From NCBI GenBank assembly GCA_965656495.1, contig CBFHKU010000009.1:18098-82097 (forward strand): a stretch of 64,000 nucleotides of DNA, in the 5' to 3' direction. The position numbers and the translations under genes were made by a program. The notes beneath the pieces are model-generated. The model saw only the letters and a program-made list of their open reading frames with translations, ran no database searches and was not told the origin of the DNA. Positions 3,393-11,242 of the stretch are shown one piece after another. The stretch's first letter is position 1. The number at the start of each line of letters is the position of its first letter. Source of the stretch: Coraliomargaritaceae bacterium. GTDB taxonomy: Bacteria; Verrucomicrobiota; Verrucomicrobiia; Opitutales; Coraliomargaritaceae.

Positions 3393-4838
3393 ATGGCAAA
3401 AGTATTGGTAATCGATGACGACGCGGATTTGCGTTACTCGCTGAAGCGCGTGCTCAGCGGGGAGGGTTATGACATACTCGAAGCGGAGAGCGGGGAGGCG
3501 GGTCTGAAGGTGGCGGCGGCGGAAAAACCGCAGGTGATTTTGTTGGACAACCGTATGCCGGGAATGACGGGCATCGAGACTTTGCAGCATTTGCGCGGGG
3601 AAAACCCGAATGCCATGATCATTCTGATGACGGCCTTCGGGACGACACAGACCACGATTGAGGCGATGAAATTCGGGGCCTTTGATTACATCATGAAGCC
3701 CTTTGATCCGAAACAAATCGTGGGTTTAACGGCGGCGGCTCTGGCAGCTTCTTCGGATTTGGATAAAGCGAGTGCGAGCATGGGCGGGGATGCGGATTCG
3801 CATTCGCATGTGAGTGCAGAGGATTTGGAAGGTGGGATCATTGGGAGCTCGGAGCCGATGCAGGCGGTTTTCAAGACAATTGGCCAGGTGGCGGCGAGCG
3901 ACGCCACCGTGATGGTCACGGGTGAAAGCGGCACGGGTAAGGAATTGATTGCGCGGGCGATTCACCAGAACAGCTTACGATCCAACAAGCCCTATATCGC
4001 AGTCAACTGCGCCGCGATTGCGGAGAATTTAATCGAGAGTGAATTGTTTGGTCATGAAAAGGGCGCTTTTACCGGAGCGACGCAGCAACACATCGGGAAG
4101 TTTGAGCGTTGTGACGGGGGTACTATTTTTCTGGATGAAATTGGTGACATGGCGTTGGCGACCCAGACGAAAATTTTGCGTGCCTTACAGGAGGGAGAGA
4201 TTCAGCGGGTGGGCGGTTCGGAAACGATCAAGGTGGATGTCCGGATGCTGGCGGCTACGAATAAACCTCTGGAAACAATGGTGGAGGAGAAGACCTTTCG
4301 GGAGGATTTGTATTATCGTTTGAATGTGGTGCGGGTGCAATTACCCGCCTTGCGCGAACGGATGGAGGATGTGCCTTCGCTGGTGGATTTCATGCTGAAA
4401 CGTTTGGCGCGGGACAGCAAAGCGGAGTTAAAGCATATATCAGCGGAAGCGATGGCGGTTTTGCAGGCATATGATTGGCCGGGCAATGTTCGGGAACTGG
4501 AGAATTTGATTTATCGCAGCGCGGTAATGGCGCAAGGAGAGGCGATTTTGGTCAAGGATTTGCCGGAGGAGGTGGTGAAAGCGGCGGGCCTTGAACCGTC
4601 GGAACAGGCCGAAGAATCGGGATCGGGTACAGGGGCGGCGAGCGGCGATGCTTTGGACGCAGCGTATGCGCATTTGCGGAGGGAGACCGACGTGGATTTA
4701 TTACAAGCGGCAGAGCGCGCCATGATAGCGCGGGCACTTCAGGAAACCGGGGGTGAGCTTGGAGCGGCGGCAACGATTTTAGGGATGACGCGTCCCACGC
4801 TCCGCAAACGCATCGAGCAACACGGCTTGAGTGCTTGA
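3393..4838 (+). CDS. sigma-54-dependent response regulator (NtrC/AtoC family: REC-AAA+-HTH)
   Basis: Receiver domain (LVIDDD...LLDNRMPG...KPF), Walker [41 protein letters not shown]-terminal Fis-type HTH. Confidence 0.95.
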
Positions 4839-4851
4839 GGAAAGCGAGGCG

Positions 4852-5529
4852 CTAGGTGGGGCGCACCGAGATCTGGATGCGGGCTTCCGCCGGAGCACCG
4901 AAGTTGTCGATGCCACGAATGATGACGGTGTCGCGGAGCGGCAGGTTGAAGTTCAGGGGGACGACCTGCAGGATAAAATCATTACGTTTGTTGGGGTCGG
5001 TCTCACGGCTTACATCCAGTCGCAAGGGGTCGTAAACGATCGCCTCAATCGATTCAATGTAGCGTTGATCGAGATTCACCTCGATTGTTTTAGGGGTACG
5101 CAAGCTGTCGGGTGCCCAATAGAGAACCTGAGGACTCGCATCAACGAGGACGGGTATTTGAACGAAGAGATGGAGGGTGGTGGTCGGCTCGTCCTGACCG
5201 TCCAGATAAACGAAGAGGCGCTCGTGATGTTTGCCGGTGCGCTTTCCTTTGTTGAAAATAGCAGTGACAATGCTTTTTCCCTTGGCGCGGACGATGCGTT
5301 GATCGACTAATGAGGAAACATTTCCGGCGCTACTCTCAATGCGATTAATGCGGATGGGTTTATTGCCGTTATTCGTCACGACAAACTGAAGCTTGGCCTG
5401 CGTATCGCTGGGGCGCATTTCGGTGCGTGCCTCGGTTTGCAGCCATTTGAGCGCGTATTCTGCCTGAGCCGCTAGACAAGGGAAAGCGAGGCAGGCCAAC
5501 AAAGCCAGGGATTTGAAATGGGTAGACAT
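4852..5529 (-). CDS. exported hypothetical protein, Ig-like (DUF1573-like)
   Basis: Signal peptide (LALLACLAFPCLAAQA) followed by FVVTNNGNKPIRINRIESS, typical of DUF1573/ASH Ig folds. Confidence 0.6.
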   Translation of the reverse strand: MSTHFKSLALLACLAFPCLAAQAEYALKWLQTEARTEMRPSDTQAKLQFVVTNNGNKPIRINRIESSAGNVSSLVDQRIVRAKGKSIVTAIFNKGKRTGKHHERLFVYLDGQDEPTTTLHLFVQIPVLVDASPQVLYWAPDSLRTPKTIEVNLDQRYIESIEAIVYDPLRLDVSRETDPNKRNDFILQVVPLNFNLPLRDTVIIRGIDNFGAPAEARIQISVRPT

Positions 5530-5624
5530 TGAATTAACATTATAAAGTGGAGCAGAGCTGGCAAGTTTGAAGCGGCAGGGTTTTATTGCTTCACCTTGGT
5601 ATTATTCCTTATTAGGATTTGGTA

Positions 5625-6044
5625 ATGGGAGTCTATACTGAACAAATCGAGGCGCAGGCACCGGGCAAATCAACCGCAGAATTTACAGATGCGGTGGCAT
5701 CGGGTTTGCGCAAAAGTGGCCTGCGGAATGGGAGCGTGACGGTCTTTTGCTGTCATACCGGTTGCAGTCTCGTCATTATGGAAAACGCGGATCGCTCCGC
5801 GCGGCGCGACCTCGAGCGTTTTATCGAGCGTCTCGTTCCGGAGCACGATCCCGATTTTACCCACACCCTCGAAGGGCCGGACGATATGCCCAGCCATATC
5901 AAGATGGCGCTCACGCGAACCGCCGAGGTGATTCCATTTGTGGACGGACAGCTCTGCCTCGGTACCTGGCAGGGCGTTTTTCTATGGGAGCACCGGGCGC
6001 AGAGCCAGAAACGCCGCATCGTCCTGAGCTACCAGGGGGAGTAG
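5625..6044 (+). CDS. yjbQ: YjbQ/UPF0047 family protein (secondary thiamine-phosphate synthase)
   Basis: HTGCSLVIMENAD, H...EGPDDMPSHIK, LGTWQGVFLWEHR. Confidence 0.92.
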   Translation: MGVYTEQIEAQAPGKSTAEFTDAVASGLRKSGLRNGSVTVFCCHTGCSLVIMENADRSARRDLERFIERLVPEHDPDFTHTLEGPDDMPSHIKMALTRTAEVIPFVDGQLCLGTWQGVFLWEHRAQSQKRRIVLSYQGE

Positions 6045-6062
6045 GGCGGCGGCTTTCGATAC

Positions 6063-7013
6063 TTATGCCCGAGAGCTTCGCTGCGTGATAATATATACGG
6101 TAAATAAAATCGCGAATGCGATGGCAGTCAAAATGACCAGGTGTAGCGCCGCATTATCAAATTTTTCAAAGAGCCATTTTATAAGACCGGTTGCGATCAG
6201 TGCGATGCTGCAAAGGCTGCCGATCAGCCATAAAAGTTTGTCTTTGATCATGTTTTCGAAGCTGGCCTTTAACTTTGCCTCATATTGTAGGAATTTCTCA
6301 TCTATATCTTGCGTGAGGGAGTCTATTTTTTCTGAAATTGTCTGAATTTTTTCATCGAGCTTGATGAGTTCGCTTCCGATATAATTGAACGGGTAGCCGG
6401 CTTCCTGTAATCGTTTTTTTGGATCCAGTTTATATATGGATGATGACACAATGAGGTCATCGTCAATGTCTACCGGTAATGAGCGGGCAGAAGTTTTGAT
6501 TCCATCGGTGTCTTGGTAGATGTGGTCACTTTGTGAGCCGTATGGGTTTTCGGGGGTTTCGTTTTCATCAAGCAAGAGGAGGGTAAGTTTAAAGAGGTGC
6601 CCTCCTTCCTTAAGGGTGATCGGGTTGGTGGAGCCATTTCTGATTCCCCAGTTCAGGTGACCTTTAAAACCGGCATCAATTTTTGTAGCGGCTTGTACAA
6701 TACCTTCCCGCATCATGGTGGTGGTAGGGGTTACGAAGCCCATTATCATTTGTCCCGGGTATTCCGCTTCCAGGGCAGCCGATGAGAAGTCTATTTTTTC
6801 TTTACTCGAAACAATAACCGATTCGCCCGGATTAATCTTCAGGAAATGTCCTTTAGGGATCTTCTTTTCCTCTTTTGTTGCGAGGAAACGAACCGCATTA
6901 CCCAAGCGCAATTCTACTCCATTGGGATTGATTTTTATATTACTGCTCTGGTCTCCAACAATGATGCTGGATAGGATTTTTCTAATTTCCTTATCGGGAA
7001 GCAATTGAGCCAT
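6063..7013 (-). CDS. dCTP deaminase/dUTPase-fold protein with C-terminal coiled coil and two TM helices
   Basis: Residues 1-178 align by eye with Dcd (LPDKEI, INPNGVELRLG, INPGE, MREGI, KIDAGFKG, N...PITL..G, PYG...YQD); heptad-like segment at about 213-258; two hydrophobic helices at about 260-282 and 288-310; visibly more AT-rich than its neighbours. Confidence 0.75.
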   Translation of the reverse strand: MAQLLPDKEIRKILSSIIVGDQSSNIKINPNGVELRLGNAVRFLATKEEKKIPKGHFLKINPGESVIVSSKEKIDFSSAALEAEYPGQMIMGFVTPTTTMMREGIVQAATKIDAGFKGHLNWGIRNGSTNPITLKEGGHLFKLTLLLLDENETPENPYGSQSDHIYQDTDGIKTSARSLPVDIDDDLIVSSSIYKLDPKKRLQEAGYPFNYIGSELIKLDEKIQTISEKIDSLTQDIDEKFLQYEAKLKASFENMIKDKLLWLIGSLCSIALIATGLIKWLFEKFDNAALHLVILTAIAFAILFTVYIITQRSSRA

Positions 7014-7062
7014 ATTTATATTCTTTATAAATTAGGCTGTTTATCAACAAAAATAAATTTAT

Positions 7063-8610
7063 TTACTGGGCGATTGCGAGCAGCGTTTCGATGGCGGGGA
7101 CATCCTTGATGATTTGGCTGGGTTCGGGGCCGACGCCGATGTAGCGGAGGTTGGGGAGCTTGGCAGGGCCCTGGTCGCCGTGGTTGGCGACGTCCACGAG
7201 GGCTTTGAGCATCCATGCCACGTAGTTTTGGGCGTTGGCGGGAAGCGCAGCAAAATGGCGCACGGTCGAGATGTCTTCGCTCCAGCCGGGGAGTTCCTTG
7301 TAAACGGGTTGCAGGGTGCGGCGGTAGCTGTCGTCGCGGGGGACGTGGTGGATGCTGCGGCCCTCGGCGTCGCGGTAGGCGGTGCAGATGCGGAGCGATC
7401 CGTTCCAGTCGCCGGAATGGGAGAGGGCATCGAGTTTGTTGAGGACGAGGTCCTGATAGCCACCGTAACGGAGGGCATCGCCCTTTTCAACGGCGTCATA
7501 CCAACCGACCATGCGTTGGCGTCCGGTGGTGGCTCCGAATTCGATTTGGCGGAGTTGTTGACTGAGGGGGTGGTCGAGTTCGATTTCGGAAATAAAGGCG
7601 TGGGTGCCGACCTTGGTATCGTAGGCTTTGCAGCAACCGACATTGTGGATGGCTTGGACGGGGATGCCGGCGGACTGGAAGAACTCGGGGGTAAAGGTAT
7701 GGGAGGCGGTGACGTTGGGCGGGAAGCCGTGCCGTTTGTCGAGCCAGTAGGCTTGGCCGAACTCGCCGATGACGTAGCGGCCCTGGTCGACTTCGCGGAG
7801 GATGAGTTCGCGCACGTCGGTGATTTGCGGGGCGAGGATTTGACCGGCGGCCCAGTAGGTTTCGATGAGGGCTTCGGTGTTTAGGGTGAAGGGTTCGGCG
7901 CTAGCGAAGGCGGCAAAATCAAAATCCTGGGCGGGGGCTTTTCCGGCTTGGATGATTTCGGCATTGGCGCGGGATTCCGCTTCGCCGAGGGTTGCGAAAG
8001 CGGCGAGCCAACGCTCGGGGGAAATTTGGCAGACGTGTTGAATGATGCGGCAGGTGCGCTCGATGCGTTCACGGAATTTTTCCACGAAGTGGTCTTTGGG
8101 GCCGTGGAGGTCTGCGTAATAAATTTGGAATTGCCCGACTTCATCGAGGTAGGCGGGGGTGATTCCGCGACCGGTGGAACCTCGGGCTTCGCCGCCGGGG
8201 AGGCGTTGGCGGTAGTCTTCCCATGCCAGGTCGAGGAGGCGGTGACTGAGGTCGGAGAGGAGGCAACGCTCGTCGATGGCAAGGCGTTCGAGGGCGCGGT
8301 GACCGTGGAGTTCGGCATAGGCGCATTCCCAGAGGAATTTGCGGGGATCGGCGACCACCCCACAACCGATCGGCAGGTGTGGTACTTCGGGATCGGCGAC
8401 GCCGCCCGGCAGGAGGTTGAGCTTGAGGCCTGCGACGGTGTGACCGGAGTTGGAACCGCCGTTGACTTTCATGACGGCGCCCACCGCATCGCGGTGTCCG
8501 GTGGATTCCCGTAGTTCGTTGACGATCTCAAGGATGACGCGGCCTTTGCCCTCGTCGCCGGTTGAGATGCCGGTATCGGCAATGAGTTGACTCTGAAATG
8601 GAGTGAGCAT
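7063..8610 (-). CDS. purA: adenylosuccinate synthetase (divergent, with insertion)
   Basis: [71 protein letters not shown]. Confidence 0.93.
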
Positions 8611-8621
8611 GCGGGTGCAGT

Positions 8622-10199
<1,578 letters not shown>

Positions 10200-10255
10200 G
10201 CGCTGAGTGCATCAAATAGTTGTCTTTTCTCAAGCCGAAAACACATTGGAATGAA

Positions 10256-11242
10256 ATGAGAGAAATCAGGTACCAAAGCTACTCGCGTCGATTTGAGCGT
10301 CCATTGCGGACGGCACGGGGTGAATGGGCGGTTCGCGAGGGGTATTTGTTGCGGATTCGGGAGGGGGATCGGGTAGGATATGGCGAAGTGGCACCGCTGC
10401 CTGAATTCGGGACGGAAACGCTGGCGGAAGCGGAGGCATATCTGGCGGCTTTATCGGCGGGCGGGGAGTTGGCGCTGCCGGAGCACTTACAGTGTTGCGC
10501 TTTTGGAATAAGTGCGGCCTTGGCTGGGCTACAAGGGGCAATGGTATTGCCAGATCGCGATTTTGAAGTGGCGGGGCTCTTACCGGCGGGTGAGGCAGCG
10601 GAGTCGGCCATGCTAGAAAAATGGAGTGGTGGTTATGAGGTTTTTAAATGGAAGGTGGGGGTCGAGGCGGCTGCAAGTGAGATGGCAGTTTTTGAACGAC
10701 TGGCGGAGCGATTGCCGGAGGGGGGTCGTTTGCGTTTGGATGCGAACGGGGCGTGGTCGGTTGAGTTGTTGAATGAATGGCTGGAATTTTTAAAGGGCTG
10801 GGTGAATGTGGTGGAATTTGTGGAGCAGCCTTTGGCTGTGGGATTGGAGGCGGAAATGTTGGCGGCGCGGGCGGAATCGGGAATCGAGATTGCGCTGGAT
10901 GAAAGTTTGAACGGAGCGGGGGCGGCACGCTGGTTGGGTGAATGGCCGGGCGTACTGGTGGTTAAAGCGCCCTTGATGGGGGACTTGGCGCGATTGCAGG
11001 CGCAACTCGAACCGGTGGCGGAACGGGTGGTGCTATCCTCGGTTTTTGAAACGGGTATCGGGTTTTTGAATACGATGGTATTGGCGGGGGCCTTGCCGAA
11101 GCTCAACTTAGCCTTGGGGTTTGATACTTTGCAGTTTTTGGATGCACTAGGGGGTCGTAAGGAGGGTGCCGTGATTGCGGCATCGGATTTGGTAGCATTG
11201 AATCCTGAAGAAATATGGAACGCGAACCGCCATTTGATTTAG
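10256..11242 (+). CDS. menC: o-succinylbenzoate synthase (enolase superfamily)
   Basis: GEVAPLP, KWKVG, LRLDANG, EQP, IALDES, SSVFET; adjacent to menE; ATG at 10256 preferred. Confidence 0.88.
   Translation: MREIRYQSYSRRFERPLRTARGEWAVREGYLLRIREGDRVGYGEVAPLPEFGTETLAEAEAYLAALSAGGELALPEHLQCCAFGISAALAGLQGAMVLPDRDFEVAGLLPAGEAAESAMLEKWSGGYEVFKWKVGVEAAASEMAVFERLAERLPEGGRLRLDANGAWSVELLNEWLEFLKGWVNVVEFVEQPLAVGLEAEMLAARAESGIEIALDESLNGAGAARWLGEWPGVLVVKAPLMGDLARLQAQLEPVAERVVLSSVFETGIGFLNTMVLAGALPKLNLALGFDTLQFLDALGGRKEGAVIAASDLVALNPEEIWNANRHLI

Follow-up and report, generated by a model that had tools for sequence, protein, structure and literature searches.

A Dcd/dUTPase-fold protein with a coiled coil and a membrane hairpin: a candidate single-gene defence module in Coraliomargaritaceae and other bacteria

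Introduction

What does a gene that joins a nucleotide-enzyme fold to a membrane anchor do, alone between yjbQ and a purA-like gene of a Coraliomargaritaceae bacterium? The gene lies at 6063..7013 on the minus strand of a 64,000-nucleotide stretch of contig CBFHKU010000009.1, called the window below. Its 316 amino acids form a Dcd-like head, an arm, a collar, a coiled coil and two transmembrane (TM) helices. The initial annotation, made from the sequence alone, had proposed that the head no longer works as a dCTP deaminase and that the protein may be a single-gene system that senses a nucleotide during phage infection.

We found a lone, horizontally acquired, accessory gene. The defence reading is the one we favour, because the gene was inserted at its locus, is patchily distributed, is linked to insertion sequences (IS) and has defence genes enriched nearby. 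On these mobility and context data the single-gene defence hypothesis is strengthened and plausible. More specifically, the protein may be a stand-alone module of the abortive-infection type, in which the binding of a deoxynucleoside triphosphate (dNTP) in a trimer would be coupled to a six-helix membrane bundle; we regard this as a realistic prospect that falls just short of probable.

Results

The head has a Dcd/dUTPase fold without the deaminase glutamate

The head comprises residues 1-148 (6570..7013, minus strand), as supported by Foldseek, profile alignments and residue counts. Pfam PF22769 (DCD) matched residues 5-144 with an E-value of 8.4e-12 and 45.9 bits, against a gathering cut-off of 27, and PHROG 1663 'dCTP deaminase' matched the protein at 6.7e-14. 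The AlphaFold2 model, computed with 88 family sequences, had a mean pLDDT of 91.3. Its head is rich in beta strands and ends at residue 148; an extended yet confidently modelled stretch follows at 149-190, and then come short helices at 192-204, a single long helix at 209-284 and a further helix at 288-315. When the model was compared with the PDB by Foldseek, the top 30 matches were all Dcd, Dcd-dUTPase or dUTPase chains, with E-values down to 9.7e-10 and TM(target) values for the head of 0.71-0.86, the highest being those of the Thermococcus pacificus and 'P45' dUTPases. The motifs of the head are PNGVELRLG (30-38), TPTTTMMREG (95-104), KIDAGFKGHLNWGIRN (111-126) and FKLT (141-144). The Pfam scan found no extra N-terminal domain in the protein; its matches to XhlA and DUF948 were far under the cut-off, merely reflect the coil and the TM helices, and were set aside.

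The active site was located by profile alignments of the head to 2yzj, 8y1w, 9ln0, 4xjc and 2qxx and by residue counts in three sets of family members: 27 (alignment A1), 88 (alignment A2) and 173. For the roles of the motifs in the nucleotide pocket, we assume those known from general Dcd and dUTPase enzymology. The family sequence 'GFrGtLnWglrN' aligns with GFNGQITLELFN of Bacillus halodurans and GFSGHITLELSN of Mycobacterium tuberculosis, so that the deaminase 'ITLEL' falls on the family's 'LnWgl', and the position of the catalytic Glu, which we take to be Glu138 in the numbering of E. coli Dcd, is held by Gly123, ten residues past D113. The residue after the invariant Trp is Gly in 59/88 members and Glu in 1/88; in the larger count it is Gly in 121/173 and Glu in 1/173. 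Among Dcd-type enzymes, this position is Glu in the deaminases, and Met or Ala in monofunctional archaeal dUTPases. Motif 2 is (R/K)SS..R.G in Dcd-type enzymes and (P/T)TT..REG in the family; in the window's protein it contains T97-T99. Its basic residue is replaced (T97 in 81/88 members), while T98 is found in 86/88 and R102 in all 88. The motif-3 Asp (D113) is kept in 86/88 members and is followed by an aromatic residue, Phe or Tyr, in 87/88. The motif-4 Gln of Dcd-type enzymes is Lys in 73/88. Besides R102, the residues kept in 88/88 members are D7, R36, W122, N126, E152 and P154.

To judge from the sequence, this loss of the catalytic Glu excludes deamination. An ordinary housekeeping dCTP deaminase or dUTPase, correctly named by annotation, is accordingly a hardly credible description of the gene. 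In the source databases the family is labelled 'hypothetical' or 'dCTP deaminase', and JGI uses the name deoxycytidine triphosphate deaminase for many members; it also speaks for such an enzyme that the Pfam DCD match exceeds its cut-off and that the gene's own genome shows no other Dcd or Dut. Against it, apart from the lost Glu, the score for NCBIfam dCTP_deam (TIGR02274, residues 5-175) was 53.7 bits, under the equivalog cut-off of 92.8, and that for the dUTPase equivalog NF002598 was 26.2 bits, under a cut-off of 130. The protein moreover bears a coiled coil and two TM helices, and the gene is missing from most related genomes, as described below.

Hydrolysis is a different matter. The best profile matches of the head were monofunctional Dcd-type dUTPases that have no Glu at this position (2yzj, 4.7e-14; 8y1w, 3.2e-13; 9ln0, 4.3e-13). 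Because these closest relatives also lack the Glu, and because the Asp, the Arg, the hydroxyl pair and the arm are all kept, a working dUTPase-like hydrolase is possible. The pocket can likely still bind a pyrimidine dNTP and perhaps hydrolyse it as well. The initial annotation was thus borne out on the Dcd/dUTPase pattern of the head, on the TTT motif, the kept R102 and Gly123, and on the loss of the Glu138 equivalent, for which it had asked a structural check. Its phrase 'catalytically altered' holds for deamination alone and is otherwise overstated.

An arm and a conserved collar lead into a stalk and a membrane hairpin

The head continues into an extended C-terminal arm (residues 149-190; 6444..6569), recognised by near-invariant columns in the alignments and by the trimer model. 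This and the following parts all lie on the minus strand. The conserved arm residues are E152, P154, Y158-G159, Y166-Q167 and G171, with Y158 present in 87/88 members, Y166 in 83/88 and Q167 in 82/88, and the arm aligns with 'E.P..YG....YQ..G' of the M. tuberculosis Dcd-dUTPase and the T. pacificus dUTPase. After the arm comes a family-specific collar (residues 191-208, LDPKK.L.EAGYPF; 6390..6443). Over the longer motif 'LDPKK.L.EAGYPF..IGSEL', residues D197, K199, L202, A205, G206, P208 and E215 are invariant in the 27 members of A1; in A2, G206 is kept in 87/88 and P208 in 86/88. The collar makes inter-subunit contacts in the trimer model.

The coiled-coil stalk (residues 209-258; 6240..6389) is predicted to be three-stranded from the AlphaFold2 helix, the contacts in the trimer model and its length modes. 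Measured from E215 to K259 in the 83 scorable members, the stalk clusters at 40 residues (8 members), 51 (15) and 62 (37), that is, 60/83 members lie in modes separated by 11-residue steps; the window's protein has 44. These steps suggest gain and loss of a hendecad-type repeat, a pattern also consistent with the weak profile matches that link the stalk to apolipoprotein 11-mer repeat proteins. From the steps we infer that the stalk is stiff and keeps its register, unlike a loose tether.

Two hydrophobic peaks on the Kyte-Doolittle scale follow: TM helix 1 at residues 259-282 (6168..6239), which coincides with an AlphaFold2 helix and has inter-chain contacts in the trimer model, and TM helix 2 at residues 288-311 (6081..6152), within the AlphaFold2 helix 288-315 and followed by a basic tail, RSSRA. 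Two such peaks occur within the last 90 residues in 85/88 aligned members. The basic KDK before the first helix and the RSSRA after the second suggest a hairpin with both ends inside the cell (N-in, C-in).

A three-copy ESMFold2 run was used as the trimer model. Its ipSAE was 0.71 (0.70, 0.71 and 0.72 in the separate runs), while the best control reached 0.00. That mark was attained by 20/30 proteins solved as pairs and by 1/23 solved as single chains, counts that calibrate the score only roughly because they were obtained with two copies and other alignments. The runs agreed in at least 94% of contacts, with a partner pLDDT of at least 77. In the model, motif 3 (111-115) packs against residues 30, 95-104 and 142 of the adjacent chain, an interface of the heads that the prediction network may have memorised, since Dcd/dUTPase trimers are solved. 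The arm (151-193) lies on the neighbour and touches 29-31, 95-104 and 142-144. The tightest inter-chain contacts are in the coil, at 212-233; heptad-like contacts go on to 256 and then through both TM helices. The models thus support a homotrimer with inter-subunit sites, each arm reaching across the neighbour's site, a three-stranded stalk and packing of six TM helices.

The same architecture could serve a simpler purpose, namely a membrane-anchored, active dUTPase-like dNTP pyrophosphatase whose coil and hairpin only localise it. Such an enzyme would possibly act on dUTP or on phage-type modified pyrimidine dNTPs, in pool sanitation or in a depletion-type defence. We consider it possible, on the doubtful side. 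The nearest solved relatives are Glu-less monofunctional dUTPases (TM(target) 0.78-0.86), the high conservation of D113, R102, T98, Y158 and Q167 counted above is what an enzyme would need to show, and no other PF22769 or PF00692 gene was found in the own genome. Nucleotide-pool enzymes are, moreover, an established class of anti-phage defence, according to a passage of the review PMC13276650, which cites Tal et al. 2022. An invariant collar and a stalk whose length changes in 11-residue steps are, on the other hand, unlikely features of a mere tether; the basic residue of motif 2 and the motif-4 Gln are replaced in most members; and four of the six genus genomes grow without any PF22769 or PF00692 gene. 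The known Dcd and Dut enzymes are also soluble proteins of about 150-195 residues.

The gene was inserted between yjbQ and the purA-like gene

Empty-site contigs and the comparison with congeners delimit an inserted or replaced segment of 1040 bp, 6048..7087, to which no strand is assigned. The insertion was absent in 5/5 same-genus genomes, in which the purA-like gene and yjbQ adjoin directly, their stop codons about 4-19 bp from each other; in these genomes the purA-like identity is 83-97%, and guaB and yjbQ are conserved. The 3'-terminal 25 nt of the purA-like gene fall within the segment, and the C-terminus of its product is altered accordingly.

Sequencing runs showed both states of the locus. 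Metagenome run X16 contains both: the gene is covered at a word depth of about 9-10 by contigs without any difference from the window, and in an empty-site contig of depth 51 just 28 other letters separate 6047 from 7088. This contig belongs to a relative, because 17 of 148 letters differ on its yjbQ side. The same joint of 6047 to 7088 occurs in the RNA-library run X20, and a loose end that matches it is seen at 7088 in run X19. The filled form was present in 3/3 DNA runs examined (X14, X16 and X19, from three studies).

Base composition also sets the gene apart. The GC content is 0.425 over 6045-7062, compared with a genome mean of 0.541 (standard deviation 0.046, 4044 one-kb windows), and just 1.3% of these one-kb windows are equally low; over 6001-7200 it is 0.425-0.468, versus 0.55-0.63 on either side.

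Among 61 related genomes the gene was found in two, its own genome and the congener G006. The G006 copy shares 46% identity and is found on a different contig, where nadA and nadB flank a low-GC islet (0.42-0.49) that contains it and, beside it, a BrnT-like toxin gene (locus L059, 8,400-10,800). In the own genome, the nadA-nadB interval (contig C6, about 115,200-118,100, outside the window) is occupied by another low-GC array, some 3 kb long, of two 104-aa BrnT-like open reading frames (ORFs), repeated small basic ORFs and a HicA/HicB-like pair. The nadA-nadB interval is a low-GC hot spot of variable content, and the low-GC islets that receive family copies also hold toxin-antitoxin genes.

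Within the genus, the copies in the own genome and in G006 were the only PF22769 genes found. The trimeric dUTPase PF00692 was found in 0/6 genus genomes (G000, G001, G002, G004, G005 and G006), a search that did not extend to dimeric/MazG-type dUTPases or dCMP deaminase. Since four of the six have neither PF22769 nor PF00692, the genus does not need the 316-aa protein for growth. The synteny of yjbQ and purA, which the initial annotation had named as a point to check, reveals no vertical conservation at this locus, and its picture of a lone AT-rich gene between the two is confirmed.

The family is widespread, patchy and found mostly in uncultured bacteria

A word-indexed protein search returned 562 proteins at E≤0.001 among 3862 candidates. 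Among the 120 matches listed, five were 85-99% identical to the window's protein and the others 41-56%, mostly with 306-340 aa and matching over their full length. An exhaustive search of cluster representatives gave 146 proteins at E≤0.001, 40 of them at E≤1e-30. With at least 562 family proteins that share invariant motifs, the 316-aa reading frame is far beyond chance.

To place the family in genomes, one genome per species was searched (185,579 species). A scan of the species-representative contigs with the single protein found nothing, and an alignment-based scan confirmed 50 loci (given numbers beginning with L below) from 82 pattern matches. All 50 come from metagenome-assembled genomes. 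Their titles name Acidobacteriota, Verrucomicrobiota, Planctomycetota, Gemmatimonadota, Nitrospirota, Zixibacteria, Stahlbacteria, Binatota, Thermodesulfobacteriota, Vulcanimicrobiota and Gammaproteobacteria. Across these phyla, the invariant motifs of head, arm and collar testify to strong purifying selection. A quick IQ-TREE tree of 43 rows contains starred groups that cross phyla: Zixibacteria with Syntrophaceae (98), and an Acidobacteriota row inside a Verrucomicrobiota clade (99). Vulcanimicrobiota is also nested inside Acidobacteriaceae. The window's row has a long branch (1.87) and an unsure placement, and does not pair with the copy from the congener.

A typical phage or plasmid gene was considered and dropped. 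Cultured phage records gave only domain-level matches, to 7 Sulfolobus rudivirus dUTPase records, plasmid records gave 1 weak partial match, and in IMG/VR viral contigs 0/19 pattern matches were confirmed. Nor did the C-terminal module turn up with other heads: a search with residues 178-316 returned 6 proteins of the same family only, and an Atlas search with residues 185-316 gave no usable match. Nor were longer fusion proteins, of 554-2000 aa, detected at E≤1e-5, which is weak evidence. Two candidate relatives, P0208 and P0255, were rejected as proteins with eukaryote-like tandem IQ-type repeats 'AATKIQAGFKGH' that match the motif-3 hairpin 'AATKIDAGFKGH' by chance. Proteins with the 'AATKIQAGFKGH' repeat are a trap for sequence searches that use the 316-aa query.

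Transposase, toxin and defence genes lie near family copies

The 913 crude ORFs of the 50 loci, which came from a greedy and imperfect ORF caller, were clustered, and 245 neighbours were scanned with Pfam. A single neighbour cluster recurred, an IS1-like DDE transposase in 7-8 of the 50 loci. It matched PF03400 above the cut-off in L001, L023, L032, L045 and L048, and it stands just upstream of the family gene, in the same orientation, in L023, L031, L032, L045 and L048. L023 and L045 belong to different phyla, and the DNA that they have in common (9155-10947, 71% identity) consists of the transposase and the family gene only. Other transposase genes or fragments lie at most two to four genes away in L005, L025, L042 and L048. 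The window's copy stands without any transposase. Besides the transposase, no conserved partner gene was found among the 50 loci, and the 245 scanned neighbours included neither a cyclase family nor a member of the thymidylate-synthase family (hydroxymethylase).

Toxin-antitoxin genes are frequent nearby (MqsA, SocA/Panacea, PIN, BrnT, Phd). Some copies lie between genes of one pathway, leuC/leuD-like genes in L009 and nadA/nadB in L008. At L009 (8258-12355), the large and small subunit genes of an aconitase-family (leuC/leuD-like) enzyme enclose the family member together with a 211-aa ORF that has no Pfam match; flanked in this way, the two represent an insertion inside a presumptive operon.

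Defence genes were counted with PADLOC models in two sets of neighbours. The inner set held the nearest neighbours of the family gene, up to four on each side with at least 80 aa, 349 genes in all. The outer set was a random 150 of 393 genes further out in the same loci, at a median distance of 6.6 kb. At E≤1e-15, 33/349 inner genes matched and 4/150 outer genes, a density about 3.5 times higher near the gene; two of the four outer matches continue islands already counted in the inner set. The odds ratio was 3.8, with a Fisher p of 0.008 that is overstated, because genes within one locus are not independent.

After curation by eye, 14/50 loci have credible defence genes. The strong cases are L006 (Hma), L012 and L019 (PDC-S37/Hhe), L018 and L049 (Type I restriction-modification), L026 (PD-Lambda-3_B), L036 (a Type III methylase and SoFic), L040 (PDC-S31), L041 (AbiE), L042 (PDC-S19) and L048 (PDC-M19), and the moderate ones are L011, L017 and L047. 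Matches to TopA, DprA, RlmI, IscS, a dynamin-like protein, a sigma-54 activator, Schlafen/AlbA and a weak helicase were discounted as housekeeping look-alikes or as weak. In two unrelated loci, a giant helicase-nuclease (PDC-S37/Hhe) lies one small ORF from the family member (L012, 4749-9356, 3.3e-55; L019, 11411-16420, 5.6e-191); the two genes may pair repeatedly or simply share a hot spot.

Shared insertion hot spots would account for the defence neighbours, if the gene were IS cargo with a role unrelated to phages. It could then have a membrane or stress function, be an addiction-like selfish module, or exclude other mobile DNA. The transposases described above, the variable low-GC islets with toxin-antitoxin genes that receive the family gene, and the 36 loci without a credible defence neighbour fit this explanation. 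Several observations run counter to it, namely the strong purifying selection on head, arm and collar motifs across phyla, the lack of a transposase beside the window's copy, and PADLOC matches that are denser beside the gene than a few kb away. We judge it unlikely.

Flanking genes and expression signals

The gene is a 316-codon open frame that starts with ATG, and this start is right because the homologues in the family alignment open with the same N-terminus, 'MA.(I/L)L.D'. Downstream lies yjbQ (UPF0047; 5619..6044, plus strand; PF01894, 1.3e-36), convergent with the gene, the stop codons being 18 bp apart. Upstream, an AT-rich spacer of 49 bp (7014..7062, minus strand) separates it from the purA-like gene of the adenylosuccinate-synthetase family on the same strand (7063..8610, minus strand; 515 aa; PF00709, 1.1e-74). 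The spacer contains one sigma-70-like match, TTGATA-16-AAGAAT at 7047-7020 on the minus strand, and the scan for promoters and terminators gave no excess over shuffles (1 promoter site versus 1.4 expected). The purA-like protein is unusually long, and PF00709 matches it in two stretches, the best of which covers residues 242-469 only. Its final eight residues are unlike those of the congeners, because the insertion replaced the 3' end of the gene.

Beyond yjbQ lie a DUF1573 lipoprotein-like gene (4852-5529, minus strand) and an ORF of the sigma-54-dependent response-regulator type (3393-4838, plus strand). Both are outside the insertion, as they are conserved in congeners (shown for DUF1573). 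In the RNA-library run X20, one 268-nt contig matches 6826-7093 with 0 differences; it runs from the 3' end of the purA-like gene across the spacer into the gene itself, of which it covers the first 188 nt and leaves the remainder uncovered. This is a weak hint of transcription, and a weak one only because DNA may contaminate RNA libraries. If genuine, the contig would fit read-through from the purA-like gene.

Discussion

The question was what a lone gene of this kind does between yjbQ and a purA-like gene. It was acquired horizontally and is accessory. Of the points that the initial annotation had raised, a coil and two C-terminal TM helices, a patchy distribution and a proximity to defence genes were all recovered. 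Several points weigh against a defence role. The pocket retains nearly all that a dUTPase needs and would suit an ordinary enzyme no less than a sensor. The TM helices show little sequence conservation and may do no more than hold the protein in the membrane. PADLOC models gave no family at E≤1 for the 316-aa protein itself. The control for the enrichment of defence genes was drawn from the same loci, the credible matches were picked by eye, and in 36/50 loci the four genes on either side include no credible defence gene. Many copies have housekeeping genes around them, e.g. lpxA/C, secA, dnaK and leuC/D; a Terriglobia clade of 13 rows seems largely vertical; and no consistent pair of terminal inverted repeats was found around the transposase-gene unit in four loci.

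If the protein is nevertheless a defence module, we propose the following mechanism. Three cytoplasmic heads of the Dcd/dUTPase fold would trimerise and form nucleotide pockets at the subunit interfaces. Each arm would cross to the neighbour's pocket and pass through the collar into a three-stranded coiled coil, which would lead to a membrane hairpin of two helices, so that the trimer would have six TM helices in all. The pockets would take up a pyrimidine dNTP whose level increases in the course of infection, the candidates being dUTP, dCTP or a modified dNTP made by the phage. In Dcd and dUTPases, the C-terminal arm becomes ordered over the bound nucleotide, and binding may order the arms here in the way that substrate does in those enzymes. 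Because the arm is covalently continuous with the collar and the stalk, nucleotide occupancy could reach the membrane bundle: a rigid, register-preserving stalk would relay the change of the arm to the TM helices, the bundle would then compromise the membrane, and abortive infection would result. Any residual hydrolysis would reset the sensor.

A bolder form of this proposal is a one-gene receptor that reads a phage-specific pyrimidine dNTP, with arm closure as the switch, a six-helix pore as the output and slow hydrolysis as the timer. Candidate ligands would be dUTP, 5-hydroxymethyl-dUTP or -dCTP, or a similar modified dNTP. We think this form unlikely. If it were true, the protein would be the first defence protein with a repurposed dUTPase as its sensor, and the first TM effector gated by a nucleotide to work without a signalling partner; in bacterial immunity, most of the known membrane effectors with such gating rely on a partner enzyme that makes the signal. 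It would also mean a new way of sensing infection, in which the deoxynucleotide pool is read directly, and a new use of an ancient fold of nucleotide metabolism.

Even as a mere enzyme, a trimeric dUTPase-like protein that is anchored in the membrane and has a quantised stalk would be a new subject of study. Its family comprises at least 562 proteins in at least ten phyla, mostly of uncultured bacteria, and correcting the wrong label 'dCTP deaminase' is useful in itself. The literature searched, in which most subscription journals are not covered, contains no description of a Dcd/dUTPase head joined to a coil and TM helices, in agreement with the initial annotation, which knew of no described system with this architecture.

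Among known proteins, the archaeal and viral Dcd-type dUTPases come closest (Sulfolobus tokodaii 2yzj/2zdc; T. pacificus 8y1w; P45 9ln0; Sulfolobus rudivirus). They have the same fold and order of motifs, likewise lack the deaminase Glu, and share the motif-3 Asp, the Arg, a hydroxyl pair (Ser-Ser in these enzymes, Thr-Thr in the 316-aa protein) and the 'Y..YQ..G' arm. They are, however, soluble proteins of 155-169 aa, whereas the 316-aa protein adds the collar, a coil of 50 residues and two TM helices. It also differs in having TTT for (R/K)SS, Lys for the motif-4 Gln and the invariant Trp122.

The dCTP deaminases and Dcd-dUTPases (E. coli 1xs1; M. tuberculosis 2qxx/4a6a; B. halodurans 4xjc; Methanocaldococcus jannaschii 1ogh) share the fold (TM(target) 0.67-0.76), a conserved Arg that aligns with R102, and the 'E.P..YG' arm; the likeness as homotrimers comes from the model. 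Where the deaminases have 'ITLELxN', the 316-aa protein has 'LNWGxRN', and it is membrane-anchored and scores under the TIGR02274 cut-off.

The anti-phage dCTP deaminase (Tal et al. 2022; PADLOC 'dCTPase', PDLC02373) likewise employs a Dcd-family domain as an accessory gene, often near defence genes, and it presumably carries a kinase-like N-terminal domain. Its PADLOC model found a plain 170-aa Dcd-like ORF in L044 at 1.7e-42, a positive control, whereas the 316-aa protein lacks both the PADLOC match and the deaminase Glu, and only the latter protein has a TM hairpin. Action on the dNTP pool is possibly a logic common to the two, within the established class of nucleotide-pool defence enzymes (as stated in the passage of PMC13276650 that cites Tal et al. 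2022).

The effectors of CBASS and Pycsar offer an analogy of design, and only an analogy. A nucleotide-binding domain fused to TM helices is known from both, and the 316-aa family shares with them the combination of a cytoplasmic nucleotide-binding domain and a small TM module, together with such effector-like traits as poorly conserved TM sequences and an accessory context. Unlike them, it has no partner cyclase or conserved signal-making neighbour, and its candidate sensor is a dUTPase-derived trimer instead of a SAVED, cNMP or beta-barrel domain. Any ligand for the 316-aa protein would have its source in the phage or in perturbed metabolism.

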